A stretch of DNA of 64,000 bases, from contig BCGN01000009.1 in assembly GCA_001599295.1 (NCBI GenBank), positions 248,001 to 312,000 of the forward strand, in the 5' to 3' direction. Source of the DNA: Sporopachydermia quercuum (taxonomy: Eukaryota). Below, piece by piece: positions 273 through 64,000 of the stretch (position 1 is the first letter of the stretch; every line of letters begins with the position of its first letter). The notes below the pieces were generated by a model. That model was not told the origin of the DNA. It saw only the letters and a list, made by a program, of their open reading frames with translations, and searched no databases. The translations under genes were made by a program, and so were the position numbers.

Positions 273-1744
273 ATGGGTACTAGTTGGTGATTCATTGAGT
301 ATATAAATATAAATGGTTCTGGCAGTAACTTCTATTTTGTAGAAATAGTATTGTCTGAATTTATGGTTGAGTGTCGTAATGTCTATGGTTATNAGCTTTT
401 AGTTTCAGTGTATAATGTGAATGCCAGCAATGGTTGCTCGATTTGGTTATTGTTATGCGTAAGAATGAAGACTTTCCAGCGAAACCTCTCCAAGTGACAT
501 GAAACGATGAGCAAGCGTATCAAATTACACCTCCCATTTGATCTTGTATAAGCATTCAATGAATTAGACAGAATAGTTTTGAGTTATAAAGTAGAATGAA
601 ATCAACATTGGTATTTATTTTGGTTCGAAAAAGTGTTCCAGCATTCATTATGATAATAGCATATGACCATGAAATTTCTATCGTTGTATCACGTGATATC
701 TACTATTTTGATCTCTTACTATGTAACGAAAAGAAAGCAGATGTACTTTGGATATATAATATAACCAAGCCCATCTTTTAGTAAGCTCAAAAAACTTTAC
801 TGTAAACAAACCGACACAAAACTGTATGACTCTAAGAATCTCATTTGGTGAGTAACCTAGGATTGGTCTCAACGGATATTTTGTTAGGTTCGAGAAACCT
901 TGTTAGGTTATATCAGGGATGTATGTTCGGTTGGTTGGTAGGAAAGAAACACTATTTCTTCAGTCAATTATCTAGCAAATAAATAGATTACAATTTCTTC
1001 CAATGAATATAGTTCTTATGTTTCTGAATATTTTTCGTTTCACCTTCAATTTCTTTCGTCATACCAAACTGAACAGTGTTGGCTTCATCATAAATCGTCC
1101 AATAATCACAGTAATTTCAGTTTCAGAGATTATACCCGTCAACCTTTGACATATAACTTACGATTGATTTAATNAAATTGCATTCTCTCGCTTCATAAAA
1201 ATCTAGAGCTGGTATGAAAACGTATCATTTACTCTTCTTCCGTGTGTTCCCTATACCGTATTTTCGTTCCTGNAGGATCGATCTAGTGACAGTTCCTTCA
1301 AGAATAGGTTTACCATGATTACGTATTTATTATTACATAATCGAAATATATATTTTCATCTTCAGAATCAAGAACTCAAACACCTAAAGATAAATCTTAA
1401 CCACACATTCAATAAAAGTACTAGNTGAATATAACGAAGAGTGGAAAAATTGATAGCAACAATATTGAATCCGGTATTAAATCACCGAGAATTAAGGCTT
1501 GATATGTGATCTGAAATCGGCGTGACTTAATTACTATTTGTGGAGTTGGCAATTCCCGAAATTCATCTCATTGGCTTGATTCTCGCCTTAACCGTGACTG
1601 CTAACTGTTTACTTCATCGACAGACAATTGAGCTGCTCTAAATAACAAGCCACAGAACATAAACCATTAGAAAGCTAAGCCGCAACAGCCTCATATACTC
1701 CTCCTATCCTTCTTGCCCCTCATTTCACTTCCTGATCCGCTACA

Positions 1745-4700
1745 ATGTCTGGATCGCCCCAAAACTCAGCACTCCTTTCATCAGTCCCCACTCCCTTATC
1801 GTTCATCCCGTCAAAAGCCTCCGACAAACTACACAACGACTCAAAAAGTAAGCGCTATATCACTGCAATCGAGAGAGCCTTAACATTATTTGATGCTGTG
1901 GAAGAATGGGCCGACTACATCTCCTTTTTAGGCAAACTACTAAAGGCTTTGCGCCAACATACGGACCATTGGATTCCTTCCGATAATTTGGTTTCAGCTA
2001 AGCTGGCGCAATGCCTGAACCTAAATCTTCCTAGCGGAGTTCACCAGAAGGCATTGGAAGTCTATGATTACGTATTCGAAATTCTTGGCAATGATAACCT
2101 AGCGGAAAAACTCGCAATATGGTTGCCAGGGATCCTTCCGTTAATGAATTATGCCAGTATCAATGTTAAGCCGGTATTATTAACATTATTCCGAAGGTAC
2201 ATACTTCCACTTCCGAAATTTGCTTTGAGAATTGCACTGAAGCCTATTTTAGTATCTTTACTCCCGGGAATTGACGACGAGTCTTCCGAATCTTTTCAAA
2301 CAACTATGAAGATCATTTCCGATTTTCGCAAAAATTTAGGAAATGATTCATTCTTTTGGCAAGCTTTTTTTTTAGTGATATTAACGTCTCCCGACCGTCG
2401 GCTTGGAGCTTTAGTATTTGCAGGTAAATACCTACCAAGTTTCCAGCTTCCGAAAGATTGTAATGCGGAAACTCGGGACGAAATTCTGGCTAATCTGTCC
2501 GCGGAAGCTAAAGCTGCTATTTCTCCCGAACCGGGGTTACTACTTCGGATGTTTTCTTACGGGCTTTCCGACAGTCAGATTTTAGTCCAACGCGGTTTCT
2601 TTGATTTACTTATAGAGCGGCTAGAGTTAGGTTCCGCTGTTTTACAAGTTTTGGCTCGAGCGGAAGACTTGCAGCTGTTGGTGGAGAAAGCGGCTGAGGT
2701 TGTACTTCGGAAGGACATGTCATTAAACCGGAGATTATGGAGTTGGCTATTAGACTCTAGTTCTGTGTCGAGAAGTAATATAGGAAATCATAGCGGAAAC
2801 AATATAGTAAGCGGCGGCGGTGGAGGAAGTTCTGATGGGCCTGAAACGGGAAACACAATGTCCCGGGTGGAATATTTTGCCCGTTATGGGTTCCCTGCGT
2901 TATCCGAAGCAATTCTGAATCTTATTTATAGCCAAGAACCGGTTAAAATGAGCCGAGCGTTCCGTATTTGCCTCAGCACAATGGATCGATGGGAAATCGG
3001 TTCGGTAATCATTCCCGCAGTGTTTCTACCGATGATTGAGTCTGTAAAGGATCTTTCGGAAACAATTGAAGAAACATCCGATCCTCGGCAGGAAACTTTA
3101 AAAAGTGCTGCTGCATTGTTTGATGGAATCGAAGCTGTTTCAATCTGGTCCGATGGATTCCGATTACTTACTAACTTTAAAACATTACCATTACGATATA
3201 TTCCGGTAGAGAAAGAAGTAGATCCATCCGAACGAAAGAATTTGGAGCCGATAAAGTATAATTTAGAGTTATTTCTATTTATTGTACAAACGTTCAATCT
3301 TTCGGATGAGGAAATGGTAGTCACTCATTTACCGTTAATGTTGGAAGCCTTGTTTATACTAGGAGAAGATCTCCGGTTGTACCAATCCTCGGGTAATACT
3401 GAAATATCTCGGCTTTGGTTGGAAATATGCGGCAAAGTACTTGAATTAATTCCGAGCCGAGCCTTCATACCTCAACAGCATGCACCGGAAGATATAATAA
3501 CGGATAATTCAGAGATTATTTCCGTTATTGGAAAATTTTACGGAATAAAATCGGAGATCGTTTTGGAAGAAGTACCCGAAGGGGATAAAAACTCAGAACA
3601 ATTGATAACCTCGGAAGCTTCCGGAAGCAAACCGGAAATAACCCCAAAATTTGAAACAGCATCAGAAAGCTTAAATCCACCATTTAACGGGGCTACTTTA
3701 ACCAGTATGCTAGTTAATAAGGTTTCCGATTTAACCTTAGAAGCGATCTTACAGTTACAAACCGAAAACCCAAATCGAGTTTCGGAAAATTATTCAGGAT
3801 CTTATTTTCTTCCTAATTCTTCCGTAGTTTCAACCATCTGCGATCTTTTGACTTCCTTGCACGAACAAATTCCGGAACACGAAACTTGGAAACCGAAAAC
3901 TATTCTGAAAACTTTACTGCAAACACCGGAGTATTCCGTAAACCCTGTTATACAGTTTGGAATTGTCAAACTCATTATTTCCGTTATTCAAAGCTTAAAA
4001 ATAACTGAGAAGAGACAATTAATCCACAAAGCAGTCCGTTTACTATGGCACCCATTGACTCATCGATCGGGTGAATTTCAAGTCGAAGCAGTAACTTTAT
4101 TATGGCAATTGCAGGAGAAATCTTCTGGTCGCGAAGTAGAAGCAGCATTTTGTAAAGTTTTTGTTGATCTGGGGGAAAATTCTGAACAGAAATACCGAGC
4201 CTTTTCCGCTTTATGGACTCATTCAATTGATCGACGCAACTATGAACTATTAATATTTAGACCATTATTTTTATTCCTTGATGGATTACAAACATCTTTG
4301 GATCCGTCGGAACGGATGCTAACAGAACAATGGATACAGGAAACTGTTTCTTCCGGATTAAGCAATCGACTTTTTGCATCATTGATCAATCCGTTACTCC
4401 GCACGGCATTTTTATCTCGAGATCCGTTAGTATTTCAGCTATATTCGGATGATTTGGACCTTTTTGCTTATTATGCGGAAACCTTAATGAATGTACTAAC
4501 TACTGGGAAGACTGAGGAAACCGGAAAAGCCAATTTACGGAAGTCTTTCCGTTCGGAACTTGCCGTAATCGATCAGCAAGTCCGGCGAGCGATCTCGGAA
4601 GCCAATATTGACGGGAATAATATATCTACATACAAAGATTTGTTATTAGCGGTATTAAGGAAGATATTTAAGGCTAAACTAGGAAATCTTGGAGCAGAAG

Positions 4701-7700
4701 GAACCTCCCCTTTNGGGGACATTCATCAGAGTCGATTTCAACAAGCCTACTGTCACGTGATGAGTACTTGCATACGATTATTTGATTTCGTTATTGACGG
4801 CAGTGAAACTGATTTTGGAAAAGATGTTTGTATAATAGCGGAAATAATATGCCAGCAGTTGTTTTCTGGCGAATTGTCGGCAAGATCCACACAATCAGCC
4901 AGATTACCTACTTCGGGTGATAGAAACAGTAATATCTCCGACGTGTTTACTTTAACTTCGCATTTGGAACCTAATTCAAGCTCAAACCTCAACACCNACC
5001 TCAATTGTAACGCTAATGCTAAAATATACGTCCATGTATTGTTAGTCAACACGATCAGCAAATTACTACAAATTGCACATACTAAGTCAATCAATTTGAA
5101 TAGTATCCGGCCTACACTAGCTCGGCAATTATCGGAATCGAAAACTCAGTCAACATCAGGGTCGGGTAATTTTGGATTAGAGAATTTACTTATTTCCGTT
5201 TTCAGAACTGGAAGCTCGATGATTATGGAAGCTTGGAATGCCGTTTTAGTAAGATGTACGGAATACTTTCCCGATATAGTGTTTGGACACCTTACTACTT
5301 TAGTTGAAGGTTTGTGTAAACAAATAGATCTAACGTTTGATTGGATTAACCGATCTTTTGATCCGGAATTGGCACCACAACCAGGAAATCCCGCACTAAA
5401 ATTGGAATCGGAATATTTATCGGAATTCTCAACAGATCAATGTATTTTATTACTAATGTCAGGGTTAGAACACGTGCTCGTTGCTGCCCACAAAAATCTA
5501 ATTCGGATAGAAGAACCCAGAACAGGTACTAAATCAACGTCAGAGCAGTCCTCGGGTTTTTTCGGATCCGTTATGCAAGGAGTTTTTGCAGTAGAAGTTT
5601 CATCAGCGAATTCTTCCGAGCCTTCCGCTTCTGCTTATTTGACCTTTTTATGCTTCAGAACAGCTATCAGAACTTGTTTCCGGATATGGCTTTGGGCTGA
5701 GAATAAACACAATTTCAATAGTCGTCGGGAAAGTTCTGTCGGGGCAACCATAACCGCGTCGGAAGACCCGTTCCGACAGTCTACAATATATCATGCCGCT
5801 AAATTGAAGTTCCGAACTAAACGGCTGGTAGAGAAATTGTTCGAGTTAGAGCCATTGGAAACAGTTGAAACTTTAGTGGAATTGTCGGAATACTCAGTCC
5901 AATCGGGTAAATTCGGTTCGGAGAGTAACTTGAATATCAGCTTAAGTTTCAACCGAAATTCCAATCTTGTTTCTTCTACTCGGCCCGTTTTTAAGATGTT
6001 GCAAGTGTTAGACGGATCTCGGCCTCAGTTAACTATACCTTACCTATTCCGCGGAATTATATCCCGNGTTGATCCAACATTAACGGATGGGCCGAGCCGA
6101 TCAAGCCGAACTTCTGAGCTTTCGGAAATGACAATTGCTCAATTCCTTATCGGATATGTTGGAAACTTAGAAAATGATGCAATGGAAGACATATGGCCGG
6201 CAAGTTTAACGTTTTTAAAGGAAATTTCGGCAAACNTTCTGATATTTAGACATATTTTACCTGAGCTTATTGGTTTTACAAGTAGACTGGCAATTAAAGT
6301 GGATAAAACAAAGTTTGGGTCCCAGAAGAAGCCTCGGAAGGATCTAGCGGAAACATTACTGCGGATATTATCGGGAGGAATCGGGCCAGCTAAGACAAAC
6401 CTTGCTAATATGTTAGGACCTGAACGTGATGCTTCGGAGGATTTTTTAGGTTCAGGATCAGGTTCAAGTTCATTAGGTGTTGCTGCAACGGACTTGAAGG
6501 TGCATTCGTCAACAGCATCAATGCATACCATAGCTGAAAACTCTAATGGCAATACTAATATCAATTCGACTGCGAATACCACTCCCGCAACTACATTAGG
6601 AATACCGGGAACCGGAAATGGAAGCATAATAACGCAGGCAGGAAACTCTACCGGAAAGCCATTCGGACAGGAAGAACTGTGCGGAACATTAGTGTCCATT
6701 ACTCCAACTTTACCAACAATAATCCAAGAGCCCGACAAGCTCACCTCGGCATTGAACCTTATTTTCAGTAACCTTATTTCTCCGATTGGCAAACTTAAAG
6801 AATTTCCAACCACAATCCCAAATTATATCATCCCGCTGATTTCCGCCACGGGAGAACTTATCTTCAACTCTACCGGTATTTCCAATAACTTACAAAAACA
6901 GTGGAAATCATTGGTCTATGACGTAATCACTGATTCTCGGGTCTTTAGCTTATCACAATCTGCAATCACTACATGGCAACCAGCATTTGTGAAATGGTGT
7001 TCTGTAGATTCGGATAAATTCGCCGAGTTTTTGAGCAGAGCCATCGGACATTCATCAAACGCCAACACTCTTTTCGGTTGGAATGACCAAGACACCGAAA
7101 TTCGGAGGTTGTACCTAAAGAGGGTAACACTTTTGCTGCTAACTAATGAAAAGGATCATTATTTAGGTCAATTTAAGGAAATCTTGGATAAACTGCAAAT
7201 GGCTTTCCGACTATTCCCGAGTCTTTATTCCGAAGTGTTTCTATGCATCCGGGCTATTGTTCTCCGATACTCGGAACAACATTTACTAACTATCTGGACC
7301 TTTGTTTATACTGAGCTTCGGAATATCTTATCAGAATTGAGAACGGATTCTGAATTCAAATCTATCTTTTCCGCTTGTAAATTATTAGATATGTTACTTA
7401 CGCTTGGATATGAGGAATTCCGACTGAATGAATGGTTATTTATTACTGACAGTGTTGATGCTATTTATAGAAATTCGGAATTTCCGCCATTAGCATTAGT
7501 TGATCAGCTAGGAAAAGTCATCGGAGCTAACGAAAATGACGGTAGGAATAATGGAGACTATAAAAATGGGAACAATACCGGAAATAACACCAATAGCCTT
7601 AAAGTTGATAACAGTGCTAATAACAGTGGTAATGCTAATATTATTAATAACAGCAACAGTTATACCAACAACGTTACTAGTTATAATGACTTTTTTGACA

Positions 7701-7915
7701 ATGATTTTGTACCTATTAGAATAACTGAAAGAGTACCAGGAAAACCATTATTACTTGGATTTAATATTAATAACACTGAGAAGTATTCAATTCAATCGTT
7801 GAAACACTTTTTTGATGCAATTAGCATGTTCAACTTTGATAGAGTGTATCATATGGAAAAATGCGATTTAGAGGCCTGCGAAAATGACTTGTATGAAGAT
7901 TTATTCAATTGGTGA
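1745..7915 (+). CDS. DOP1: Dopey family endosome/Golgi trafficking protein, 2056 aa
   Basis: Dopey N-terminal motifs EWADYISFLGKLLKAL, LAQCLN.NLPSGVHQKALEVY and VLRKDMSLNRRLWSWL; C-terminal SACKLLD..L...EEF...EWLFITD. Adjacent to MTQ2 and RUB1, as in S. cerevisiae. Confidence 0.95.
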   Translation: MSGSPQNSALLSSVPTPLSFIPSKASDKLHNDSKSKRYITAIERALTLFDAVEEWADYISFLGKLLKALRQHTDHWIPSDNLVSAKLAQCLNLNLPSGVHQKALEVYDYVFEILGNDNLAEKLAIWLPGILPLMNYASINVKPVLLTLFRRYILPLPKFALRIALKPILVSLLPGIDDESSESFQTTMKIISDFRKNLGNDSFFWQAFFLVILTSPDRRLGALVFAGKYLPSFQLPKDCNAETRDEILANLSAEAKAAISPEPGLLLRMFSYGLSDSQILVQRGFFDLLIERLELGSAVLQVLARAEDLQLLVEKAAEVVLRKDMSLNRRLWSWLLDSSSVSRSNIGNHSGNNIVSGGGGGSSDGPETGNTMSRVEYFARYGFPALSEAILNLIYSQEPVKMSRAFRICLSTMDRWEIGSVIIPAVFLPMIESVKDLSETIEETSDPRQETLKSAAALFDGIEAVSIWSDGFRLLTNFKTLPLRYIPVEKEVDPSERKNLEPIKYNLELFLFIVQTFNLSDEEMVVTHLPLMLEALFILGEDLRLYQSSGNTEISRLWLEICGKVLELIPSRAFIPQQHAPEDIITDNSEIISVIGKFYGIKSEIVLEEVPEGDKNSEQLITSEASGSKPEITPKFETASESLNPPFNGATLTSMLVNKVSDLTLEAILQLQTENPNRVSENYSGSYFLPNSSVVSTICDLLTSLHEQIPEHETWKPKTILKTLLQTPEYSVNPVIQFGIVKLIISVIQSLKITEKRQLIHKAVRLLWHPLTHRSGEFQVEAVTLLWQLQEKSSGREVEAAFCKVFVDLGENSEQKYRAFSALWTHSIDRRNYELLIFRPLFLFLDGLQTSLDPSERMLTEQWIQETVSSGLSNRLFASLINPLLRTAFLSRDPLVFQLYSDDLDLFAYYAETLMNVLTTGKTEETGKANLRKSFRSELAVIDQQVRRAISEANIDGNNISTYKDLLLAVLRKIFKAKLGNLGAEGTSPXGDIHQSRFQQAYCHVMSTCIRLFDFVIDGSETDFGKDVCIIAEIICQQLFSGELSARSTQSARLPTSGDRNSNISDVFTLTSHLEPNSSSNLNTXLNCNANAKIYVHVLLVNTISKLLQIAHTKSINLNSIRPTLARQLSESKTQSTSGSGNFGLENLLISVFRTGSSMIMEAWNAVLVRCTEYFPDIVFGHLTTLVEGLCKQIDLTFDWINRSFDPELAPQPGNPALKLESEYLSEFSTDQCILLLMSGLEHVLVAAHKNLIRIEEPRTGTKSTSEQSSGFFGSVMQGVFAVEVSSANSSEPSASAYLTFLCFRTAIRTCFRIWLWAENKHNFNSRRESSVGATITASEDPFRQSTIYHAAKLKFRTKRLVEKLFELEPLETVETLVELSEYSVQSGKFGSESNLNISLSFNRNSNLVSSTRPVFKMLQVLDGSRPQLTIPYLFRGIISXVDPTLTDGPSRSSRTSELSEMTIAQFLIGYVGNLENDAMEDIWPASLTFLKEISANXLIFRHILPELIGFTSRLAIKVDKTKFGSQKKPRKDLAETLLRILSGGIGPAKTNLANMLGPERDASEDFLGSGSGSSSLGVAATDLKVHSSTASMHTIAENSNGNTNINSTANTTPATTLGIPGTGNGSIITQAGNSTGKPFGQEELCGTLVSITPTLPTIIQEPDKLTSALNLIFSNLISPIGKLKEFPTTIPNYIIPLISATGELIFNSTGISNNLQKQWKSLVYDVITDSRVFSLSQSAITTWQPAFVKWCSVDSDKFAEFLSRAIGHSSNANTLFGWNDQDTEIRRLYLKRVTLLLLTNEKDHYLGQFKEILDKLQMAFRLFPSLYSEVFLCIRAIVLRYSEQHLLTIWTFVYTELRNILSELRTDSEFKSIFSACKLLDMLLTLGYEEFRLNEWLFITDSVDAIYRNSEFPPLALVDQLGKVIGANENDGRNNGDYKNGNNTGNNTNSLKVDNSANNSGNANIINNSNSYTNNVTSYNDFFDNDFVPIRITERVPGKPLLLGFNINNTEKYSIQSLKHFFDAISMFNFDRVYHMEKCDLEACENDLYEDLFNW

Positions 7916-8364
7916 TAGGAATACCGGAACCTAGAAGTGATATAATGGAAAAGATGATTTGTATACCGGAAATTATACAGAGAATATCTAGGATAGTAAC
8001 TCGACGTAATGGCGGAATTGATGAAGTATCATATATCATCAACAGCATGGCCTTATGGAATAGCTCTTCGAAGTGCAGATGTTTCCTTTCTTTCTTGAAG
8101 CTTTCAATCAAGCCTTCTGGTGTATCCTTTGAGAATGTTAGTTAGCTCTTCTCAATCGAACGCTCTTCCTTCTAAAGCTGCTCACCTTTTGATCGCTTGT
8201 TAACATATTGGATTTTATGCACTATTGGAATCGCACAAAGTATCTTTGTTTGATATATTAGGTTGATATGGGTTTATATCATATGTAGATACACCATTGT
8301 TTATAGTATATATAGTACTGTGTTATAATGAATTGTGCTATAAGACTATTATGTACTGATTGAA

Positions 8365-8388
8365 TACAGATTACAGATTACAGATTAC
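8365..8388. repeat. (TACAGAT)x3.4 short tandem repeat
   Basis: tacagat tacagat tacagat tac read directly. Confidence 0.8.
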
Positions 8389-9179
8389 TAGATCTGTGTT
8401 ATTCTGGTATGTAAAAGAGAGTGTTATTTCAAACAATATAGCAAGTTCTCTTTTTTTTTTTTTGCTGGTCATTTGCATGAAAATAATATAGCTCATCCCA
8501 AAGGATAATTACCAATTGGCTCTAATTGACTATCTTGCCTCCTGATAGTTTTAGAAGATGTCATCTCCATTCAGTATTCCCAACAATAATAGTAATAGTG
8601 AGCAGCAGCTTTGAAGGGGTTTCTATCAAAAAGTGATTATTCATCAGAATAATCAAAACAGTAATGCTTTCGCCAGTTGATGCCTTATGCACATTAGGAT
8701 TAACGCTGTTCTCTGTTGCAATTCCTTTCTTCCACTGTTCCTGTTCCTTCAATTGTTTTTCCTCTATTTTATCTCTATTTCTGACTCTCATTTCTGACTT
8801 CTTTGCTCTCCTAATCACCCCATTTTGATGTTCGAGGTCTCCTCTATTTTTGGACATTTTCATCCTATGATTCTAACATATTTTCACTATGAAATGTTAT
8901 AATGTTATCTCTTGAGTATCATTGAAATCAATANTGAAACACTCAATTTCGAGGCTAGAAGTATATAAACTGACGAAAAAGATATTTTAAACCAAGCAAT
9001 AATCAAATTTGGTTGCCGCTAGTTTATCGAGCAACTGAAGCCATTTAAACAGCTGAATCATATAATTGTTTTATGACTAGGCATTACTTTTGTATAGCCA
9101 CTTTTTACTACTTACTCAAGACCAAATAAACAAGCAGTAAAACCAATAAGACTAAGGTCACCTTCATACAACAGAAATT

Positions 9180-12627: not shown

Positions 12628-14745
12628 ATGGCCAACGTGTCAAACGTCAAAAACAAAGCTGCTGCTGAGCTGCAAATATCATATGAGCAAATCTTACAAG
12701 AAGCTTATGAAAGGAAAGAAACACCTTTGGAATTGAAGCAAAATTTAGCAGATTTAGAAGAATTAAAGGATACACAAGAAAGAGTACGTAGACAGTATGA
12801 AGGAGCTTTACGTCGTAATAGATTAGCTGTTGATCAATGGAAACGTTATGCTAGTTATGAACTATCATTCAAAGAGTATGCTAGAGCAAGATCTATCTTT
12901 GAAAGAGCATTGGAAAACAATCCCACAANTATTGAACTATGGATAAGTTACACGCGAGCAGAAATGAAAGCTGGAAATGTCAACCATGCTAGGAACTTGT
13001 TTGATCGGGCTGTAACAGTATTACCTAGAGTCAGTAAACTCTGGTATGAGTATGTTCGCATGGAACAGATATTACATAGCTATGGCAATTGCAGAAGAAT
13101 TTTTGAACGATGGATGGAGTGGAGACCAGATCCAGGAGCCTGGCTTGCTTATATTACGTTTGAGAAAAAATTAGGTGAGTACGAGAATGCTAGAAAGATA
13201 TTTCAAATGTTTACTATCGTGCATTCGCAAGACGTTGATGCCTGGCTTAAATGGGTTAAATTCGAAGATGAATATGGTTCTGCTGATAATGTTAGAGACG
13301 TGTTTATATTAGCTTCTGATGTTATGGCCGAACAATATGGAGAAGAGTATATAAATGAAAAACTCTTAGCAGAATGGGCACAATGGGAAATATGGCAGAA
13401 AGAATGGGAAAGAGCAAGAGCCATTTATAAGTTCGGTATCAATAATCTAAGAGCAGAAGGCAAACAGTTTTTACAACAAAAGTATACTGAATTTGAGAAG
13501 CAGTTTGGCGATAAAGATGGAATTGAAACTGTGGTTTTAGAGAAACGGAAACTCAGATATGAATCAGCTTTGGAGAAGGATCCTTATGATTATGACGGCT
13601 GGTTTTCATATTTAGATTTATTACAGGAATTATCTATATCATTGGCTGCAACAGCTGCTATTAGTTCCAATGTCTCTGCTGAAACAGTGAAAGCAGCTTT
13701 TGAAAAAGCCATTTCTTATGCTCCTATTGATAAATTGAATAAGTCTCCATGGAGAAGATACATATTTTTATGGATTAAATATGCATTTTGGTCCGAGCTC
13801 TCATTACAAGGTGAAGAACAAACTAGATCTATCTATCAGCGTGCATTAGAATTAATACCCCATAAAAAGTTCACTTTTGCCAAGCTTTGGATTTTGTTTG
13901 CAAAATTCGAAATACGATCTCATCGTTTGCCTCAAGCTAGGAAAATTCTAGGCCAAAGTATAGGAAAGTGTCCTAAGCCTAAGCTGTTCAANGCATACAT
14001 AGAAATTGAGTTAAAACTGAAGGAATTCGATAGATGTCGTATACTATACGAAAAGTACGTTTCTGCATATCCAACAATGCCTCAAGCATGGATTTCCTTC
14101 GCTGAATTAGAAGAGTCTCTCGGTGAAGACGACAGAGCGAAAGCAATATATTCATTGGCTATCCAGCAAGATTCAGAAATGCCTGAGCTCATTTGGGGTA
14201 AATATATTGAATTCTTGGTTGACATTAATTCTTATGATGCTGCACGTGACGCATACGAGCAGCTCGTAAAAAGATCAAGTCACGTAAAGACCTGGGTGTC
14301 TTACGCTTATTTTGAATTAGCGGTTCCGTCACGTGACCAAATTAAATCAATTGACACAAACAATGTTATTGATGATAGCAAAATAACACAGGCGCGAGAC
14401 GAGGAAGAAGAAATAGAGATAGAAGTAACAAATGAAGGTAAAGAGAGAACTCGAAACGTATTTAATAAAGCATTAGAGTATTTCAAACAGAATGGAAAAA
14501 AGGCAGAAAGAATTGTGCTGTTAGAATTCTGGAGAACATTTGAAAAAGACTATGGAGATGACGAGAGCTTGAAACAAGTGGAGAAGAAGTTCCCAACAAT
14601 GGTTACACGCAGAAGAACAGGGGAAGATGGATTGATTGAAGAGTATGAGGATTATATTTTCCCTAATGATGAAGAATCAAGAGGATTCTCTAAGTTTTTG
14701 GANAATGCAAAGAAATGGAAATTACAGCAAGCAGGAAAATCGTGA
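12628..14745 (+). CDS. CLF1: Crooked-neck HAT-repeat splicing factor (NTC subunit)
   Basis: VKNKAAAELQISYEQIL start, many HAT repeats (RARSIFERAL, NHARNLFDRAVTVLPRV, WRRYIFLWIKYA, IPHKKFTFAKLW). First ATG at 12628. Confidence 0.96.
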   Translation: MANVSNVKNKAAAELQISYEQILQEAYERKETPLELKQNLADLEELKDTQERVRRQYEGALRRNRLAVDQWKRYASYELSFKEYARARSIFERALENNPTXIELWISYTRAEMKAGNVNHARNLFDRAVTVLPRVSKLWYEYVRMEQILHSYGNCRRIFERWMEWRPDPGAWLAYITFEKKLGEYENARKIFQMFTIVHSQDVDAWLKWVKFEDEYGSADNVRDVFILASDVMAEQYGEEYINEKLLAEWAQWEIWQKEWERARAIYKFGINNLRAEGKQFLQQKYTEFEKQFGDKDGIETVVLEKRKLRYESALEKDPYDYDGWFSYLDLLQELSISLAATAAISSNVSAETVKAAFEKAISYAPIDKLNKSPWRRYIFLWIKYAFWSELSLQGEEQTRSIYQRALELIPHKKFTFAKLWILFAKFEIRSHRLPQARKILGQSIGKCPKPKLFXAYIEIELKLKEFDRCRILYEKYVSAYPTMPQAWISFAELEESLGEDDRAKAIYSLAIQQDSEMPELIWGKYIEFLVDINSYDAARDAYEQLVKRSSHVKTWVSYAYFELAVPSRDQIKSIDTNNVIDDSKITQARDEEEEIEIEVTNEGKERTRNVFNKALEYFKQNGKKAERIVLLEFWRTFEKDYGDDESLKQVEKKFPTMVTRRRTGEDGLIEEYEDYIFPNDEESRGFSKFLXNAKKWKLQQAGKS

Positions 14746-18785: not shown

Positions 18786-19309
18786 ATGGTTTCTGGTTAT
18801 GGATACAAGGGAGGTCCCAGTCGTTGCTTTGGTGGTAAGTTTATTGAAGATGGCCTGACCAAGGAAACAAACGAGAAGAGGAAGTAGACAAAAGCCTGGA
18901 TACTATAAGGAAGCTGTATCACTGAAGATAGAAGAAGGCGACACCCTTATTATCATTCGAGATGGTGGATTGTTGAATATCTTGAGGAAGGAATTGATCA
19001 TAACTACATCATAGATTCGTTTGTTTCCTTTAATCCGAATAGTGTATGAACACGTTGAACTATTATTAACATTTTATAGAATGGCAACGGTACCTGGATT
19101 GTTACACAGCAGCAGCTACTCGTCAACCATCAGAATGCCTTCCAAACTTAGAAGACTACTTTGAGTGTTTGCATCATATGAAAGAAAGAAAGCGAGTTGA
19201 AACTATACAAGGTGAGATGAAGAAGGCCCAACTCGATGGATCAGATTCATTTACCTTAAAAAAGTCAACTCCTGTTGAAGGTTTGGGATTGGCCCCAAAG
19301 GAAGCATAA
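18786..19309 (+). CDS. NDUFS5: Complex I accessory subunit NDUFS5/NIPM (twin CX9C), 2 exons, 92 aa (absent from ORF track)
   Basis: Exons 18786-18834 and 19080-19309; intron GTAAGT...TATTAAC...TAG. Product MVSGYGYKGGPSRCFGEWQRYLDCYTAAATRQPSECLPNLEDYFECLHHMKERKR..., with two CX9C motifs and the fungal SG(Y/F)G..GG.SRCF / EDY.ECLHH signature. Confidence 0.92.
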
Positions 19310-33197: not shown

Positions 33198-33815
33198 TTA
33201 CAAATCCTTCTTATCCTCTATTTCCTTGGGTTCACCATTTGCTCCCTCTTCGTTTGCATCTTCTACCTTCTCACCTCTGGTTTCAAACACCTGGGAGTGT
33301 GAGATGTATAATGAATACCCCAAAAAAGATCCAGCAATTACCAACACAACCAATAAAACGGTCACCGGTCCTTCAATCGCCCACTCCCGGGGTGGGAACA
33401 CTTTACGAAGTGGGTCATCCACAGCACAAAATGGCTAAATTATTATGTTAGAAGACTTGCTCGTTTGAGAGTCTCAACTTCTCTCTATACTCCTCTTTGT
33501 CTTCAAACAATACAGTACNACAGTCCCTTCTGTTTAGCTCATTGCTACCACCAAAATAAACACATACCAAAATCAGCAGCCATACAAAATAATAGGCAAA
33601 AACTAAGGTGACAATAATAAGCATCAGTGATGTCCCAACATAATAATTTTCGTACTCTCTGTTGATCACCTTCTACATATACGTTGAATTGTGGTTAGTA
33701 TTACACGTTACCTAATCAAGTTTAGATGACAGTCAAAATTTCAATGGAATATCCCACTTTTCCCTAATTATTCACATACTGGTTTGTATTCGGTGGTCCA
33801 TAAAGATTGTGACAT
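33198..33815 (-). CDS. DPM2: Dolichol-phosphate-mannose synthase regulatory subunit DPM2-like, 3 exons, 125 aa
   Basis: Exons 33815-33780, 33672-33568, 33434-33198; both introns GTATGT...(TA/TT)CTAAC...TAG, phase 0. Product MSQSLWTTEYKP-KVINREYENYYVGTSLMLIIVTLVFAYYFVWLLIL-PFCAVDDPLRKVFPPREWAIEGPVTVLLVVLVIAGSFLG... matches the DPM2 pattern YY..W..L.PF...P....F.PR.WAI..P. Confidence 0.85.
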
Positions 33816-36247: not shown

Positions 36248-37054
36248 ATGGCTAGTATCAGAACAATTGCACGACCATTGGCAGGAGCTAAAAAGGTTGC
36301 CTTCTCATCAATTGCCTCTGTGAGAACTAAGGTAACTCTTCCTGACTTGGATTACGATTATGGTGATTTGGAACCATACATTTCTGCTGAAATCAACAAA
36401 GTAAGAGCATTTTGATATNGGAAAAAGATAATTGAGTGTTGATGTTCGGATTTCACATGCGAATTGCCCTACTCCATGAGTGAGTGGAGTTTTCAGTATC
36501 TACGTCAAATACTAACTTGCATGCTATAGTTACACTATACTAAGCATCATCAAACTTATGTCAATGGATTGAACGCTGCTGTTGAACAGTTCCAAGAAGC
36601 TGAAGCTGTTCAAGATATCAAAAAGTTAGCCACTTTACAACAAGCCATCAGGTTCCATGGTGGTGGTTACCTCAACCATAACATCTTCTGGAAGAGTTTG
36701 GCTCCCCCAAAGAATGGAGGTGGTGAACCTCCAGCAGCTGGTTCTGAGCTTGCCAAGGCTATTGAAGCTAATTACGGTTCATTAGACAAGTTGATTGCTC
36801 TTACTAACACCAAACTAGCAGGTATCCAAGGTTCTGGCTGGGCTTGGATTGTCAAGAGTAAGGAAAACAACTCTTTAGACGTTGTTACTACTGCTAACCA
36901 AGATATTTGCCCTTCCAACTATATTCCTTTAGTTGGTATTGATGCCTGGGAACATGCTTATTACTTGCAATATCAAAACGTTAAGGTTGACTATTTCAAG
37001 GCTATCTGGAACGTGATTAACTGGAAGGAAGCTGCTAAGAGATACTCTGCTTAA
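36248..37054 (+). CDS. SOD2: Mitochondrial Mn superoxide dismutase, 2 exons, 225 aa
   Basis: Exons 36248-36400 and 36530-37054 (GTAAGA...TACTAAC...TAG). Basic presequence, KVTLPDLDYDYGDLEPYIS, LHYTKHHQTYV, IQGSGWAW, DAWEHAYYLQY. Confidence 0.97.
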
Positions 37055-39030: not shown

Positions 39031-40611
39031 CTATGTATTTTTCGATTGCGTCTGATCTAGTGAATTGTATGATCCAGATGTAGTGCCCGGTGCTGCATTA
39101 CTAGAAGACCTGGAGCTAGAATCTGTTTGTTCATCGTCCTTCGTGAAAAGCCTATTAACTGAGTCATTGGCAAAATTACCCTTGTTGGAAGATATGTTGT
39201 GTAAATCGTCGACAAAAGACGCAGTAATTGGTGGTATCATCAGCTCGTCATTATTCTGTTGACTGCTGTCATTATTACCATCTTTCATTGAATTGTTATT
39301 TGCTCCACTAGAAAAGGGATCCATATCATCAGGGAGAATATTAGCCACACCATTTAAAAACCAAACTCGATCCTTCATTTCAGCTGTATACACTTGAAGA
39401 AACTTATAATATGATCGTAATATTCTTCTGGCAGTTATATCTCCTGTTGATAATAATTGAACAAACTTAGTGTCTAGTAATGCAGGAAAAGCAAATATCC
39501 GCGATAGAAAATCCTTTTTGAACCTTTCTTGGTTAATCAGCTTATCCAGATATGCAAGGGTGATCAAATAAGGAGACCCATATTCAATTGGAAACAAATC
39601 GGCGATATCTTCGTCAAGGCATTTTATATCAGGTCCGTTGTTTTGCCTTTGATCAATGAGATTCAAGTTTCCCAAATCACTTAAATCTACTGAAATCAGG
39701 TTATAGAAACGAGAGGATTGCTTCAAAGGCCAAATTGCAGTCAGAATAGTTGCTGCACCTCGGACATGATAAATCCATGCTAATGGAGGCAAAGATGCAA
39801 CCTCCTCAGGTTCTTCTGTTGTTCTTGCTGATCCGTTAGAATCTAAAGATGCTTCATGAGATACGCCAGTCAGGGTACTTTCAGATGTTTCTGATGAATC
39901 TTCACCGGAGTCTAACCGTGAGGGTTGTGCATTTGCCAATGAGTCCATGATCAATATAATGGCACTTGCAACCAGAGCATCCGTATTATCATCATTGATA
40001 TTTAACACAGCTTCCCGCAGTAAACGAAGCGCATATCCTCTGTGTAATGTTATGTATCGATCAAACTCATGTCTTTTCTGAACCTTGCATAAATGCGATG
40101 CTGATAACGCTAATACTGTATGCATGAGGTAAGGGAAGCGAAATGCTAACTGAGGAACATCATGACGCCATATATCTTCACTGGACAAACCTGCATCAAC
40201 AACTGTAGGCCAAACATAGGTTAAATAATGGAAAAACAGTTGAAGATCTACCATATTCAAAGAAGAGTTCTCAGGAAGAGTTTGAGCACCTAAACTAGTA
40301 TCAAACTCCAAGGTTGGGTTTCTTCCCATTGAATTTGCTTCCATTTGTCCCGTGACGTTTGCTGATAGAAATGGTACTGACATACCATCAGAGCTGTCTT
40401 TCTTCGTAGCCCCATCTTCGGTTAGGTATGAGCATTCTAAGCCCATATGCTGACATTTCTTACATATTGGTTTAGTTTCATCACATTTCACTCTTCTTCG
40501 TTTACAAGTTTTGCAACCTCTCCTGGATTTTTGATGGAATCTCCTTTTCTTTTTGGTTTCCGACTCTTCTTTATCCTTCTGCTGAGCTTCTGTCTTTTCG
40601 TTTTCACTCAT
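39031..40611 (-). CDS. UPC2: Zn2Cys6 sterol regulatory transcription factor, 526 aa
   Basis: [29 protein letters not shown]; ligand-binding-domain motifs [78 protein letters not shown]. Confidence 0.92.
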
Positions 40612-49107: not shown

Positions 49108-49205
49108 GACAGGCTGTCCGAGTGGTTAAGGAGTTTGACTTGAATACTTAAAATCATGTTATCAAATGCGGTTCCCGCGCGTAGGTTCGAATCCTGCGTC
49201 TGTCG
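49108..49205 (+). tRNA. tRNA-Ser(UGA) with 16-nt intron (49145-49160)
   Basis: Acceptor GACAGGC/GTCTGTC, discriminator G, anticodon stem TTTGA/TCAAA, anticodon TGA at 49141-49143, long variable arm GCGG-TTC-CCGC, T arm GTAGG-TTCGAAT-CCTGC, downstream oligo-T. Confidence 0.95.
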
Positions 49206-52770: not shown

Positions 52771-54197
52771 TCATGACTTAGAATCAAACTTCTCTTCTAG
52801 TACATCAGCACCGAATTCAAGCCATTCTTTCTTAGAAATACGAGACTTTTTAAAATCACTCACACTCGAAAGAATACTTGCTCCAGTCCAAACTGCATGT
52901 TTCCTTTCTGTTGGTCGCGCTGCATATATCACTCTAGGTCTGTAATTAGGTAACAACCGCAATAAATCTCCTTGGAGTCTTTCAGTGAAGCCGGAGAGTA
53001 AAGAAGTCCCACCCGTTACTACTACATTTGAAAGTAAAGCAGCAAATACTTCCGGAGTACCATTTGTCTGACGGAGAGTTTCTGCTATTAAATCAGTAAT
53101 TCCCTTTGCATTTTGTGGAACCAGTGGCTCATTATTTCTATTAGAGGATGAAAGATTATATCCTTGAGGTGGTTTCTGTAAAGGAAATCCTGCTGGGTTG
53201 AATAGCGGCTCAATTGAAGAAAGTCTCTCGGGACCAAACATGATGGAGCTTCCATCTGGGAACTCAAATTGTCTTCCGAGCCGAGATAGTGGTGACACAG
53301 AAGCAAACGGAGTCTCCGACACTTGAGACACACATTCTTTAAACTCATCTAACACATAAGAGGTTTGATACATATGGAAAGAAGGAGTGATCACGCCGTC
53401 GGGGAAAGAACGTAAAACAGGATTTGGGGGTTGTCCTTGGTTGAAGTCTGCTATTGCTCTTTTCTCCACTTGATATCTTGGAACAATGGAGACATTACGA
53501 GATTCTAGCATTTTCAATACATGGAAAGAAGCGAAATCTCCTGCGTAACGAGAATGCAGTCCGTTGTTGTAAAGGTTGCCCTCCACGACGGGAGTTACCG
53601 AGGCAACAGAACTTCCGAGATCGACTACTAAACTTGTGGTTTTCTCAAGAGCAATAGACGAGCAAATGGGGCTCTTCACAATGGCAAACGCGGGACAGTT
53701 ATAGTATTCAAATGCAATCTCAGCAGCTTTCTTCCGATTTTCGCTGCTATTCCAAACCTGTTCGGTAATTACCAGAGGAAATTCCGAAGCCTCTACCCGC
53801 AGTTGTTCCGAGATGGCGTAATCCCAAATCTTTGTCATCAGATCCCAATCTCGAACAATTCCGTCTGCGCCAAAGGGAGTCAAAATTTCCTTTCCAGGGA
53901 CAATTTCGTCTAAATTCTCATCTCCAGCTACAATCTCATCACCAGCTTTCCCGATCTTCGTAGGTATCACATGCTTGGGCAAATCATCTCCGGAATAGCC
54001 AATCCGCGTACTGTACGATCCGCTATCAATTACAATTGATATTATATCCTCTGAAAGAGCATCAGTTAGTAAGTAGTTTGCAAACGGATGCTGGAATAAC
54101 AAAAGCAAAATATTTTGACGCAATATCGATATCTCAGATAAAAACTCGGTATTCAATACGTACCTTCCGAGGTAGATGCTGGTGGTAGAGATGGCAT
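52771..54197 (-). CDS. Nuclear actin-related protein, Arp4/ACTL6 family (Arp4 or Arp7/Arp42-type), 2 exons, 437 aa
   Basis: Exons 54197-54164 and 54050-52771; intron GTACGT...TACTAAC...CAG. MPSLPPASTSEEDIISIVIDSGSYSTRIGYSGDDLPK, ITEQVWNS..NR, VLDEFKECV, FEFPDG, NVVVTGGTSLL. Confidence 0.88.
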
Positions 54198-55085
54198 ATC
54201 TTGTACTGTAAGGACTGATGGACAAAGTGTAAGCTGTGTGNCTGGCAAGTCAGTAGAATTAGACGGAACGATTTAGTTGGAACAGGAAAGTAATTTGGAT
54301 AGTTTTTCAATTAAGTAAATTTGTTCCGAGATTATTACTCTTCGTTCTTTGGTCCTTCAGCTCGGCGCCGGAATGAGTTGAATTATGAAGGAATACCAAA
54401 ATGAATCGGCGCGTTCCGAGTAGATTTTCAATGTTTGTGCTTTTCGTTTTGGGTTTTAAGGGTCGGGAAAGGGGGTAGTTCAGGAGATAGAAGAAAGTTG
54501 AACCTTATAAGGGTCTAGACTAATGGGGGGGGAGGTCTGGAGGGAGAAAAGAGTAAGTACTGGAAGAGAAAAGAATTGATAGTCCACTTTAGGGTTTTGA
54601 AAAATTATTTAATTAGAAAGACCAAGATTTCTTTAATATTAATTGGTAGGCCAAAAAAATCTGGCATCTCCGTTTAACTATAGCCCCAGGTTTGGTTACA
54701 TAGTGTTCTAGCCTGCCAAAATGGAAGGAGGCCCTCATTCCTCATTAACTAAATAAAGTAAAACACCCAAACAGCTTAACTTCTCTTCCAATCAAGACCC
54801 TCTTACCTAACAAGACCCTATGTCATATTTACTCTAATCATTGTTTCCTTCTCTTCGGCATTCCTTCGGCACACTCTCGGCTTTTCCTTCCGGTGCTCCG
54901 TTTTCTGTCGGCCATTCCGACAGTCTCCTATCACTACACTTCGGTTCAAACACTACATTTATCCACCATCATATTTATGTTGACATAAATCGTATCTGAA
55001 TCATTTTAAACCCATTGCATGTCCTTCTGCGATCTCACATCTCACGTCCGACATCCGCAATCCTCTTCCGATACCATCCATCATC

Positions 55086-55694
55086 ATGGCTCCCTCACTG
55101 AAACTGAACAAGTCGTTGGACCTTTCGATCCTGCCAGATAACGAAAAGTTCAAGGAGTACGAGAAACTAAAACAGGAATTGAGAAGCTTACTACTGAAAA
55201 AAAAGAGCTTAGATCGCAAGCTGGCTGGCATAGAAGAAGAAATATATACTCGGGAAACAACATATTTAGAGGATATACCTAACGGCAATATAGTGAAAGG
55301 CTATGATAACTATATAAAAGGGGCAATTTCTTTGGGACAGGGAAACTATATTCGGAGGAAAGTTCCTATTCAAGACGAGGATCGGATTTTTTCCCTGAGT
55401 AGTGCAACATATATTAAACATATGCAGAAGTTGCGGGCGAAAGCGGAAGAAGAAGAGAATGAAGGTTCGGCTACTCCCGGAGTTGGAACACCGGGACCCT
55501 CGGTAAGTGGAACTGGAACTGTAACTAATGGTGGACATTCTGCTAACGGAAATGCTGGTGGTGGATCCGGAACACCTCATAGTTCCTTTTCGGGACCAGG
55601 GTCTAATAGAAAATGGAGGAAGCGACGAAAGGCGGAAGATTCTGAGGAGCCCGAAGAGGAAGAAAAACCTACAAAAAGGGTAAAAGGAAGGTAG
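55086..55694 (+). CDS. EAF6: NuA4/NuA3 subunit Eaf6
   Basis: ELRSLLLKKKSLDRKLAGIEEEIYTRETTYLE...GNIVKGYDNY...DEDRIFSLSSAT signature. Confidence 0.93.
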   Translation: MAPSLKLNKSLDLSILPDNEKFKEYEKLKQELRSLLLKKKSLDRKLAGIEEEIYTRETTYLEDIPNGNIVKGYDNYIKGAISLGQGNYIRRKVPIQDEDRIFSLSSATYIKHMQKLRAKAEEEENEGSATPGVGTPGPSVSGTGTVTNGGHSANGNAGGGSGTPHSSFSGPGSNRKWRKRRKAEDSEEPEEEEKPTKRVKGR

Positions 55695-63022: not shown

Positions 63023-63138
63023 TGCTCTAGGAGGGGATTGAACCCACGACCGTCGCGTTCCTCACACGACCGTGACATCAGCATAGACGTCGATATACGG
63101 CTATAAGCACGATGCGCTAACCTCTGCGCCACTAGAGC
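63023..63138 (-). tRNA. tRNA-Ile(UAU) with 43-nt intron (63059-63101)
   Basis: GCTCTAG/CTAGAGC acceptor plus A73, anticodon arm TCGTG-CT-TAT-A[intron]A-CGCGA, T loop TTCAATC, oligo-T terminator downstream. Confidence 0.95.
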
Positions 63139-64000
63139 GGATACCGGAAGATAACGAGGTCAGAATATATGATGTGTTTTGAGAACGTAAACTGATAAGT
63201 GACTCATAATGATTAATTGTAGATATTGAAGAGTTTTGCAGAAGAGTTCTCGCCATATAGAGATAGTGTGTCAGAGAAGATAATTTTATGTATTTTCTAG
63301 TATGCTACAATCAAAATCTACAACCTCAACATTACAATTGTTGTTGAGCTTATAATTGTTAGCCGAAGGCATTTAGTCAATTCACTATATCTACAGCTGA
63401 AGTGAGATCACTGGTAATACGACGACTTCACATACTTCACATCAACAAATAAAATTAACTGAACAATATCCTAGTTTTGGTACTCGCAAAGGGTATCGTA
63501 AACATCTTCCTTTCATGTAATGAATAAAGATTGTTCATAAGGAAGATAATCAATCCTTCGAAAAGCAAGAACAAGTTAACCATTTCGTTTTCATGCATTT
63601 CTATGCAAAACTATGCATTAAAATGTATATGCAGTGTTATCTAAATCTTATANTTCCATTGCTGATGATGTTAGAAGTCAGCAAATGTCCCAGATTGAAT
63701 TCCTTGGTGCAGCATGTAACTTGAATAATCCATAACAATGTTAATCAACTTTTATAGGAGCTCCTCAAAAGCTACTCCTACACTCTTCTCTCTCTACCTC
63801 ATCCCATCCCATCTGCCCCCCTCGCTCAAACATACATAATTTTCGCATTATGCTATTTCCTTTCAATTCACATGTACTCACAAACCCATTTCTTCCCACC
63901 ACAAACTTTTCACATTTCAACCACAAAAAAATGAAGTCTACGCACAAATACTCATTTTGTTGCTTCATTTACTTTCTTCTGCTTTGCTACTCAACCAGCC

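Follow-up and report, generated by a model that had tools for sequence, protein, structure and literature searches.

CpG islands and bimodal gene CpG observed/expected (o/e) ratios in vertebrates and insects, for which methylated genomes are taken as the comparison, concern gene-sized, strand-symmetric regions that overlap promoter and gene and in which CpG is not depleted. Very-short-patch repair in E. coli is a mismatch-repair bias that over-represents CCWGG-related words on both strands and in all frames; it acts throughout the bacterial genome and is linked to an identified methylase and endonuclease. Deviant chromosome segments are found in yeasts, such as the GC-rich left arm of Lachancea kluyveri chromosome C, with introgression as one accepted origin; like GC-biased gene conversion tracts, they are regional departures that affect coding and noncoding DNA. 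Short words also extend over whole genes, independently of frame and with a proposed gene-level function, as PATCs, the intronic A/T clusters with a 10-bp period in C. elegans germline genes, and as DSR hexamer clusters, strand-specific RNA signals of S. pombe meiotic mRNAs. The sites of Zn2Cys6 proteins are built from a CGG triplet unit, with flanking bases tuning specificity, as described in the available portion of PMC10954478. The GC-ACS origin motif of Pichia pastoris, as presented in the available portion of PMC3945215, has the core TYGAAC and occurs in single copy in intergenic promoter regions.

We analyzed a 64,000-nucleotide stretch of the Sporopachydermia quercuum genome (the window), in which DOP1 lies in what we call a 'CGG island': 6.9 kb of double-stranded DNA shifted toward CGG/CCG, most strongly toward T/C-CGG-A-A and its complement, both in the noncoding DNA next to the gene and at every coding position where the protein permits it. 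It has the CpG-island features listed above, but only CpGs within CCG/CGG (and TCGG) are raised, while ACG/CGT and GCG/CGC are as depleted as in the background, and a CCG o/e of 2.30 in DOP1 versus 0.61 represents gain rather than mere retention. Very-short-patch repair exemplifies the kind of process that we propose below; here, in contrast, the effect is regional and the word is CGG/CCG, for which we know of no enzyme. Deviant yeast segments are shifted in overall G+C and GC3, whereas here a single trinucleotide pair is affected and GC3 is 0.36, compared with a typical value of ~0.30 (0.29–0.36 in other ORFs). Unlike PATCs and DSR clusters, the signal is both aperiodic and strand-symmetric. 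A CGG triplet with flank preference is common to the island and Zn2Cys6 sites, but the known sites are triplet pairs with fixed spacing in promoters, and the island consists of ~200 single, randomly spaced triplets in an ORF. GC-ACS, as far as the available part of its description goes, is likewise a word containing G/C that serves a chromosomal function in a budding yeast with AT-rich DNA, possibly of a related order, but the island word differs and is gene-wide. No description or explanation of such a gene-wide CGG/CCG signature was found in the literature searched.

The core of the island is the DOP1 ORF (1745–7915, + strand; 2056 aa; Pfam Dopey_N, TPR_DOP1_M and DOP1_C), whose CGG/CCG load is several times that of its neighbours. 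It contains 229 of these triplets, compared with 80.6±7.7 predicted when its amino-acid sequence is combined with the codon usage of 13 further ORFs in the window (z ~19) and 167±7.5 obtained by shuffling the gene's own synonymous codons (z ~8), an enrichment well in excess of chance. The hand counts of an earlier note, 18 triplets at 2461–2760 (12 CGG and 6 CCG) and none at 12661–12960 in CLF1, were reproduced, as was its observation that the triplets occur on both strands and across codon phases: there are 121 CGG and 108 CCG (39 CGGAA and 36 TTCCG), the background-usage model is exceeded in 6/6 motif-by-phase classes (z 2.8–13.3), and all four out-of-frame classes lie above the level left by shuffling codons within the gene (z 2.4–5.2). 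ACG, CGT, CGC and GCG are not above the within-gene shuffle in DOP1. Synonymous opportunities to form CGG/CCG are used at a rate of 0.43 in DOP1, 0.11 in the background ORFs and 0.29 in a second island described below, corresponding to log-odds shifts of ~1.8 and ~1.2 for DOP1 and the second island; for ACG/CGT, the rate is 0.15 in each of the three. CGGAA and TCGGAA reach 18x and 37x their frequencies in the 8.5–53 kb background, respectively, and CpG o/e is 1.13 in the DOP1 stretch versus 0.62 in its surroundings.

The island begins ~600 bp upstream of the ORF and ends ~100 bp beyond the stop codon. The noncoding upstream shoulder (1136–1744), which covers the DOP1 promoter or 5' leader, holds 11 CGG/CCG where the pooled noncoding rate predicts 3.5 (P 9e-4; o/e 1.51 versus 0.60), and just 3 occur in positions 1–1135. 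The triplets had been noted to continue past the stop codon, and TACCGGAA indeed begins at 7922 and 7964. The 3' tail (7916–8015) contains three CGGAA, with CGGA at 7925, 7967 and 8013 (P 5e-5 for at least three CGGAA/TTCCG per 100 bp at the background rate), and 5 CGG/CCG in total where 0.6 are expected (P 3e-4); the next CGG/CCG is at 9016. Across the end of the gene, ATACCGGAA occurs three times in 7575–7971.

All four NCGG contexts are raised in DOP1 in a graded manner (TCGG 6.9x, CCGG 6.4x, GCGG 4.4x and ACGG 2.75x), and they and their CCGN complements are alone in this, all other NCGN contexts lying at 0.6–1.5x. The best context is YCGGAA: T (0.43) or C (0.24) precedes the triplet, and A follows at +1 (0.54) and +2 (0.53), compared with ~0.3 around background CGGs. 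Viewed as C-N-G, the central base is G or C in 67–76% of cases in the strongest contexts and in 18–24% in the background, while the centres of several non-CNG contexts have a G+C fraction below background. The earlier note had also seen runs spaced by 10–11 bp. The individual CGG starts (3541, 3552, 3612, 3622 and 3633) are as described, but they do not extend to a gene-wide period: no lag of 10–11 bp stands out in the autocorrelation, the largest periodogram peak over DOP1 reaches 0.173, below the global 95% null threshold of 0.268, and at a period of 10.5 the value of 0.017 likewise falls short of the null (0.031). Nucleosome or helical phasing, which had been suggested as a source of the signal, is not borne out, with neither a 10–11 bp or nucleosome-scale period nor a preferred spacing. 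Counts per 100 bp scatter in a Poisson-like manner (variance/mean 0.95), and among inverted, everted and direct triplet pairs with N = 0–25, no spacing has z > 3, the highest count being 6 against 95% null maxima of 7–8.

The same signature recurs, more weakly, at 52771–59441, in a region of three genes and the DNA between them (island 2). The genes encode an actin-related protein (–), EAF6/NuA4 (+) and a formate/nitrite-transporter-family protein (–). Their opportunity use is 0.26, 0.28 and 0.31, compared with 0.00–0.21 across the 17 further ORFs tested (each at least 100 aa), and CCG o/e in 3-kb windows is 1.18–1.51. The NCGG contexts rank in the same order as in DOP1 (TCGG 4.8x, CCGG 4.6x, GCGG 2.9x and ACGG 1.5x). 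None of the three genes has a significant excess over its own codon shuffle, which reproduces the counts (z 0.2–1.9). The noncoding DNA is enriched as well: between the divergent Arp and EAF6 genes (54250–55085), there are 21 CGG/CCG versus 4.7 expected (P 3e-8; o/e 1.52), including a TCGGC/TCCGG motif run at 54841–54945, and downstream of EAF6 (55695–57296), 23 versus 9.1 expected (P 8e-5; o/e 1.18). In the latter interval, the two ORFs of at least 65 aa match no Pfam family at the gathering score.

The signal is DNA-level, strand-symmetric, frame-independent, trinucleotide-specific and regional. The view of the earlier note, that a regional double-strand signal overlies the protein code and is not codon preference, is supported by the excess in out-of-frame classes, by the symmetry between strands and by the enriched noncoding DNA at the margins of the DOP1 island and in island 2. 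The out-of-frame and noncoding enrichment, together with the outcome of the within-gene shuffle in DOP1, also speaks against codon-usage bias due to translational selection. A GC-biased gene conversion tract or GC-rich isochore was rejected because GC3 is barely raised and several non-CNG contexts fall below the background G+C, and a CpG island or general CpG retention because NCGG/CCGN alone are up and ACG/CGT use is the same in DOP1, the background and island 2.

The protein and the remaining codon choice are ordinary. DOP1 offers 483 opportunities over 2056 codons (0.235 per codon), and the 13 background ORFs ~0.232 (1419 over ~6104 codons, summed by hand); its amino-acid composition is unremarkable, and in codons unable to touch CpG it resembles native low-expression genes such as CLF1. 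In overall composition distance, nevertheless, DOP1 stands at a Karlin delta* of 145 from the rest of the window, compared with 23–72 for control 6-kb chunks.

Of 80 fungal DOP1 loci fetched, 47 had sufficient flank and a long DOP1 match; in these, the ratio of CCG o/e between gene and flank is 0.72–1.17, and none shows a similar enrichment. The highest o/e among 919 3-kb windows from all 80 loci is 1.25, compared with 2.1–2.5 in the DOP1 island, and no donor-like signature appears in these windows. DOP1 adjoins the same MTS gene here and in a related metagenomic contig, and a relative sharing the DOP1–MTS gene order has no island, with an opportunity use of 0.22 against 0.10–0.30 in its neighbours. 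On these loci, a conserved property of DOP1 was rejected. The yeast lineage is isolated: the best DOP1 match has 32% identity, judged no lower than the inter-order yeast distances of 33–35%, and a control HisRS is 64–72% identical to the yeast matches listed, which span several orders.

Our preferred explanation of the islands, held with a probability of a little under 0.4, is a bias that is weak but lasting, symmetric between strands and directs substitutions toward CGG/CCG; it would operate locally or have come in by introgression, and we infer a neutral directional force rather than selection for function. Such a bias would be context-dependent, influencing which substitutions arise or become fixed, with the island as its equilibrium product; it might stem from mutation or repair or from motif-directed biased gene conversion, and would be strong enough to remodel silent sites yet too weak to alter the protein. 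Either it would operate in this yeast in some chromosomal segments only, or it would have operated throughout the genome of a relative that passed on the segments by introgression. The Poisson scatter and the lack of a period or preferred spacing point to composition-like behaviour rather than built binding sites, and the graded rise of every NCGG context to a neighbour-dependent substitution effect rather than one sharp motif. Further support comes from the same context ranking, at lower amplitude, in a second, unrelated segment of 6.7 kb at a distance of 45 kb, its noncoding DNA included, from the untouched protein and native-like non-CpG codon choice, and from the absence of the island at other fungal DOP1 loci, which argues that it is not a property of DOP1. 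Against a substitution bias, the island edges lie near the ends of the transcription unit, and the noncoding flanks carry 8–25 triplets per kb compared with 37 in the coding body; this deficit is a problem because a neutral force should leave at least as strong a mark where DNA is free of constraint. No single mutation type would suffice, since CGG requires several changes (AGA to CGA to CGG; TCT/TCA to TCG/TCC). We know of no fungal repair or conversion process with CGG/CCG specificity, and none was found in the literature searched.

The main rival, possible but in our judgement doubtful, is a dense array of single half-sites, maintained by weak selection per site for total density and read on double-stranded DNA by a CGG-recognizing protein, for example a monomer-binding Zn2Cys6 factor; the putative protein would coat whole transcription units and set a chromatin or expression state. 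Zinc-cluster proteins recognize CGG triplets, and monomeric binding is reported in the available portion of PMC10954478. The flank preferences, the coincidence of the island with the DOP1 transcription unit down to the three CGGAA after the stop codon, the repeated ATACCGGAA and the tight motif run upstream of EAF6 are consistent with such an array. Of the marks of a Zn2Cys6 dimer array, the CGG half-site core with its flank preference is present; triplet pairs, however, have neither fixed spacing nor fixed orientation and do not cluster, and all NCGG contexts are raised instead of one motif. An even distribution of some 200 sites along a 6-kb ORF is not known for any transcription factor, and the array is missing from the DOP1 of the gene-order-sharing relative and from the 47 other fungal loci. 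The window contains one Zn2Cys6 gene (39031–40611); nothing ties it to the island.

Selection at the level of RNA or translation appears improbable. Here, rare slow CpG codons (CGG, CGA, CCG, TCG and GCG) or a CCG RNA-modification site would hold protein output down, and the excess seen out of frame and on the antisense strand would be a by-product. DOP1 does use such codons heavily (Arg CGG 0.28 versus 0.07 and CGA 0.27 versus 0.10; Pro CCG 0.34 versus 0.06; Ser TCG 0.19 versus 0.07), and codon usage alone explains ~86 of the 148 excess triplets. However, the other rare codons CTC, CTG, AGG and GGC are not raised, the out-of-frame classes exceed the within-gene shuffle, motif and flanks are strand-symmetric, and noncoding DNA is enriched. 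The mRNA folds no more strongly than synonymous shuffles (z –1.1), and extra mRNA structure was rejected on this ground.

That the CGG-rich pieces entered the assembly through contamination or chimeric joining is very unlikely: nothing speaks for it directly beyond the large composition distance, whereas 99–100% of sampled 31-mers from 1001–9000, a stretch that takes in both edges of the DOP1 island, are present in three runs from two studies (which may include the assembly's source), codon usage away from CpG is native-like, and the MTS gene adjoins DOP1 as in the related contig. A one-off hypermutation of RIP, deaminase or editing type, such as a single clustered burst of A-to-G and T-to-C changes in C_G on both strands of a transcribed region, would fit the G/C-rich C-N-G centres and the rough match to the transcription unit, but is largely refuted, as its TCWGA and CWG precursors are not depleted (TCAGA 17 and TCTGA 17, versus ~16 expected each from background counts scaled to DOP1 length; CAG/CTG 0.86x), several substitution types are needed, including transversions for the Arg AGA-to-CGN shift, and AAG, AGG, GGC and TTG are not raised, against a general transition burst.

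Silent sites are commonly ascribed to base composition, translation or mRNA structure, and no usual explanation fits a locus where one complementary trinucleotide pair takes 43% of the silent opportunities over a 6-kb essential gene, versus 11% next door. In practice, such islands mimic foreign DNA in composition-based screens for horizontal transfer and skew codon-usage statistics. If a repair or conversion bias is responsible, it would be a eukaryotic counterpart of the bacterial repair-driven word biases and a clean system in which to measure such forces. More speculatively, and we hold this to be rather unlikely, this yeast lineage may have machinery for reading or writing CGG/CCG in double-stranded DNA, by which entire transcription units are marked. 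It would be either a chromatin code of dense CGGAA half-sites, placed at silent positions of selected genes for a zinc-cluster-type reader, or a motif-directed conversion drive that keeps writing CGG into particular segments of chromosomes. Such a reader or drive would add to fungal coding DNA a sequence layer of a new kind, and a binding field, if real, would show a coding region to be capable of bearing, at high density, a further DNA message independent of the protein.

The sequence analyzed is AT-rich (~36% G+C), and the proteins that it encodes are distant from those of all yeasts sampled; even histidyl-tRNA synthetase, used as a control, is 64–72% identical to the listed yeast matches, which come from several orders. 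The ORF at 1745–7915 (+) of this budding yeast encodes a complete DOP1 with the Dopey_N, middle TPR, and C-terminal domains. Its best match is 32% identical, about equal to the 33–35% found for DOP1 between yeast orders. The protein is 2056 aa long, compared with 1660–1900 aa in most of its closest fungal relatives, and its inserts are rich in Asn, Ser, and Gly.

The CGG/CCG-rich domain described over DOP1 in the earlier note was recovered exactly, including the counts of 18 triplets at 2461–2760 versus 0 at 12661–12960 and every quoted coordinate. Between 2001 and 7500, each 500-bp bin contains 15–29 CGG or CCG triplets, compared with mostly 0–8 elsewhere in the window. The ratio of observed to expected (o/e) CCG/CGG given base composition is 2.30 in DOP1 versus 0.61 in the surroundings. 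Of the positions at which a synonymous change would yield CGG or CCG (opportunities), DOP1 uses 43% and background ORFs 11%, and the corresponding value for ACG/CGT is 15% in both. ACG, CGT, CGC, and GCG show no excess over a within-gene codon shuffle of DOP1, and when the ten NCGN words were compared with the 8.5–53 kb background, only those containing CGG/CCG were raised (TCGG 6.9-fold, CCGG 6.4-fold, GCGG 4.4-fold, and ACGG 2.75-fold; others 0.6–1.5-fold). What DOP1 shows is an increase in a single trinucleotide pair rather than an escape from CpG loss.

The earlier impression that the excess does not look like codon preference is supported. The DOP1 ORF contains 229 CGG and CCG triplets, compared with 80.6±7.7 when the same protein is encoded with the codon usage of 13 other ORFs of the window and 167±7.5 when its own synonymous codons are shuffled. 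By the difference between these two expectations, unusual codon frequencies (Arg CGG 0.28 versus 0.07 in the background, Pro CCG 0.34 versus 0.06, Ser TCG 0.19 versus 0.07) explain about 86 triplets of the excess of 148, and the remainder comes from codon juxtaposition. As the earlier note had stated, the triplets occur across codon phases: all six combinations of motif and phase exceed the background model (z 2.8–13.3), and the four out-of-frame classes also exceed the within-gene shuffle (z 2.4–5.2). Of the 42 serines that precede a codon starting with GA, 33 are encoded by TCG or TCC, compared with 20 of 74 before non-G codons; the TCG-GA junction is clear (p 4e-5) and the TCC-GA junction is borderline (p 0.056). 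A strand-symmetry test of arginine codon choice by the preceding base (T-CGG versus C-CGA) was not significant (Fisher p 0.069). The Karlin third-order residual for CCG, only 1.16 versus 0.94, is given little weight because its denominator includes C-N-G, which is mostly CCG/CGG itself.

Enrichment over the 8.5–53 kb background is 5.0-fold for CGG/CCG, 8.5-fold for CGGA/TCCG, 18-fold for CGGAA, and 37-fold for TCGGAA. Around CGG in DOP1, the preceding base is T (0.43) or C (0.24), and A follows at +1 (0.54) and +2 (0.53). The signal lies on both strands, as noted earlier, and is strand-symmetric, with 121 CGG and 108 CCG, 66 CGGA and 56 TCCG, and 39 CGGAA and 36 TTCCG.

The excess extends beyond the coding sequence. 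Upstream of DOP1, positions 1136–1744 contain 11 triplets versus 3.5 expected (P 9e-4). The run past the stop codon, reported previously, is borne out by the first 100 bp (7916–8015), with 5 triplets versus 0.6 expected (P 3e-4), three of them in CGGAA; the next CGG/CCG is not found until 9016. The 9-mer ATACCGGAA has four copies on the + strand, three of them within 400 bp at the 3′ end of DOP1, one inside the ORF (7575–7583) and two just past the stop (7921–7929 and 7963–7971). The fourth (63141–63149) adjoins a tRNA gene, and no longer repeat is common to the flanks of the four copies.

A second, weaker island at 52.8–59.5 kb covers the genes for an actin-related protein, EAF6, and a member of the formate/nitrite transporter family. 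Opportunity use here is 0.26–0.31, compared with 0.00–0.21 in 17 other tested ORFs of at least 100 aa, and the NCGG words rank T, C, G, A by first base, as in DOP1. Since the excess of the three genes over their own codon shuffles is not significant (z 0.2–1.9), which counts against a DNA-level reading, the argument for such a reading relies here on the noncoding DNA, with 21 triplets versus 4.7 expected at 54250–55085 (P 3e-8) and 23 versus 9.1 at 55695–57296 (P 8e-5). Upstream of EAF6, 54841–54945 holds a tight run of TCGGC/TCCGG/TCCGA (cttcggca, ccttcggca, ctctcggct, ttccggtg, gtcggcc, ttccgaca), which looks like a cluster of putative zinc-cluster-type sites in a divergent promoter. The reading frame of the actin-related protein (52771–54249, −) continues without a stop for ~410 bp ahead of the first ATG, and its Pfam actin match begins only at position 76 of the profile; the gene probably starts further upstream than this ATG, perhaps in a separate exon. 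The transporter gene (57297–59441) encodes a formate/nitrite transporter domain of 250 aa followed by a Ser/Asn-rich tail of ~450 aa.

Elsewhere in the window, partial ORFs match the C-terminus of RNA polymerase I A49 (3–269, +), NDUFS5 (19070–19306, +), DPM2 (33201–33434, −), and Fe/Mn superoxide dismutase (36530–37051, +), with matches that start inside the profile. Each is probably one exon of a gene with introns, located where the sequence would otherwise seem to lack genes. Rfam models identify tRNA genes at 49108–49205 (+) and 63023–63138 (−), both presumably with introns because they are too long for plain tRNAs; ARAGORN reported no tRNA within the window. There are 56 single N positions, isolated and about every 0.7 kb over 8.9–39 kb, absent or rare over 39.0–62.4 kb (none between 39026 and 50538), and dense again past 62.4 kb. 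If the Ns mark heterozygous sites, the N-poor stretch is a loss-of-heterozygosity block. Their distribution does not follow the CGG islands, nothing sets their sequence contexts apart, and DOP1 contains only 4 of them.

The earlier note had proposed a comparison with DOP1 orthologs in sister species; the signal did not recur in the fungal DOP1 loci sampled here. A DOP1 protein alignment retrieved 80 DOP1 loci from metagenomes, 47 of which combined a long DOP1 match with flanking sequence of 1.5 kb or more; in these, the gene-to-flank ratio of CCG o/e is 0.72–1.17 (median 0.97), compared with 3.8 here. When the full set of 80 loci (1.11 Mb) was divided into 919 windows of 3 kb, the highest CCG o/e was 1.25, versus 2.1–2.5 at DOP1 and 1.2–1.5 in the second island. 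The nearest relative found, an AT-rich metagenomic contig (L001:9980–16085, 38% G+C), has the same convergent arrangement of DOP1 and a small methyltransferase gene (MTS, 45% identical) and is without a CGG island; opportunity use in its DOP1 is 0.22, inside the 0.10–0.30 of its neighbours. Since the 47 loci, the 919 windows, and this contig show none, the island is specific to the S. quercuum lineage. Its composition, outside the range of the sampled fungal DNA, argues against a simple origin from an ordinary foreign donor. DOP1 codons unable to touch CpG do not look foreign, resembling those of native low-expression genes such as CLF1.

Several other readings were rejected. Neither the 10–11 bp phasing suggested earlier nor a period at nucleosome scale was upheld, as no lag or period stands out over DOP1, and the number of triplets per 100 bp varies much as in a Poisson process (variance/mean 0.95). 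Pairs of triplets 0–25 bp apart have no favoured orientation or spacing. General rare-codon enrichment is excluded by CTC, CTG, AGG, and GGC, which are not raised; ordinary GC-biased conversion by a GC3 of 0.36 and non-CNG contexts without G+C enrichment; and amino-acid drive or a reshaped protein sequence by GARP content, amino-acid composition, and opportunity density, all ordinary. The GC-rich origin motif of P. pastoris (GC-ACS), which has a TYGAAC core (PMC3945215), is a different and unrelated motif.

Our best guess, with a probability of roughly 0.4, is a bias of substitution or conversion toward CGG/CCG that is neutral and depends on the neighbouring bases. Either this bias is active only in the affected segments, or they may have come from a relative whose whole genome is subject to it. 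This reading is favoured by the random scatter of sites, the graded response of all NCGG contexts, and a signature common to two unrelated segments at different strengths (log-odds shifts in opportunity use of ~1.8 in DOP1 and ~1.2 in the second island) that includes noncoding DNA. Against it, the islands end close to where transcription units end, the triplets are denser in the coding body than in the noncoding flanks, and no CGG-specific repair process is known to us.

The main rival, less probable and on balance unlikely, is that selection maintains a field of single half-sites read by a protein that recognises CGG. The flank preferences and the extent over transcription units fit it, as does the match to the zinc-cluster recognition triplet, CGG (PMC10954478); no known site architecture resembles so many randomly spaced sites within an ORF. 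A translation or RNA-level cause is improbable and poorly supported: native DOP1 shows no extra mRNA structure from CGGA:UCCG pairing against 15 synonymous shuffles (z −1.1 sense, −0.1 antisense), and three control genes behave similarly. Still poorer candidates are an assembly artefact, very improbable given three sequencing runs from two studies of the same organism that contain the stretch across both edges of the DOP1 island (no RNA run was listed among them, and the assembly itself may derive from one of the three), and, last, a one-off hypermutation burst, for which several substitution types would be needed and whose precursors TCWGA and CWG are not depleted.

In the literature searched, mostly at abstract level, we found no description of trinucleotide-specific CGG/CCG islands over yeast genes, and the DOP1 island is filed among compositional islands. 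Systems for comparison include bacterial short-patch repair, C. elegans PATCs, S. pombe DSR motifs, and the GC-rich arm of Lachancea kluyveri. The data, all from one 64-kb window, call for a directional force that has acted on double-stranded DNA over a long time, that favours YCGG(A), is limited to certain segments, and is weak relative to protein constraint. A bolder reading, which we keep open, is that a CGG reader or writer system may mark transcription units in this yeast.
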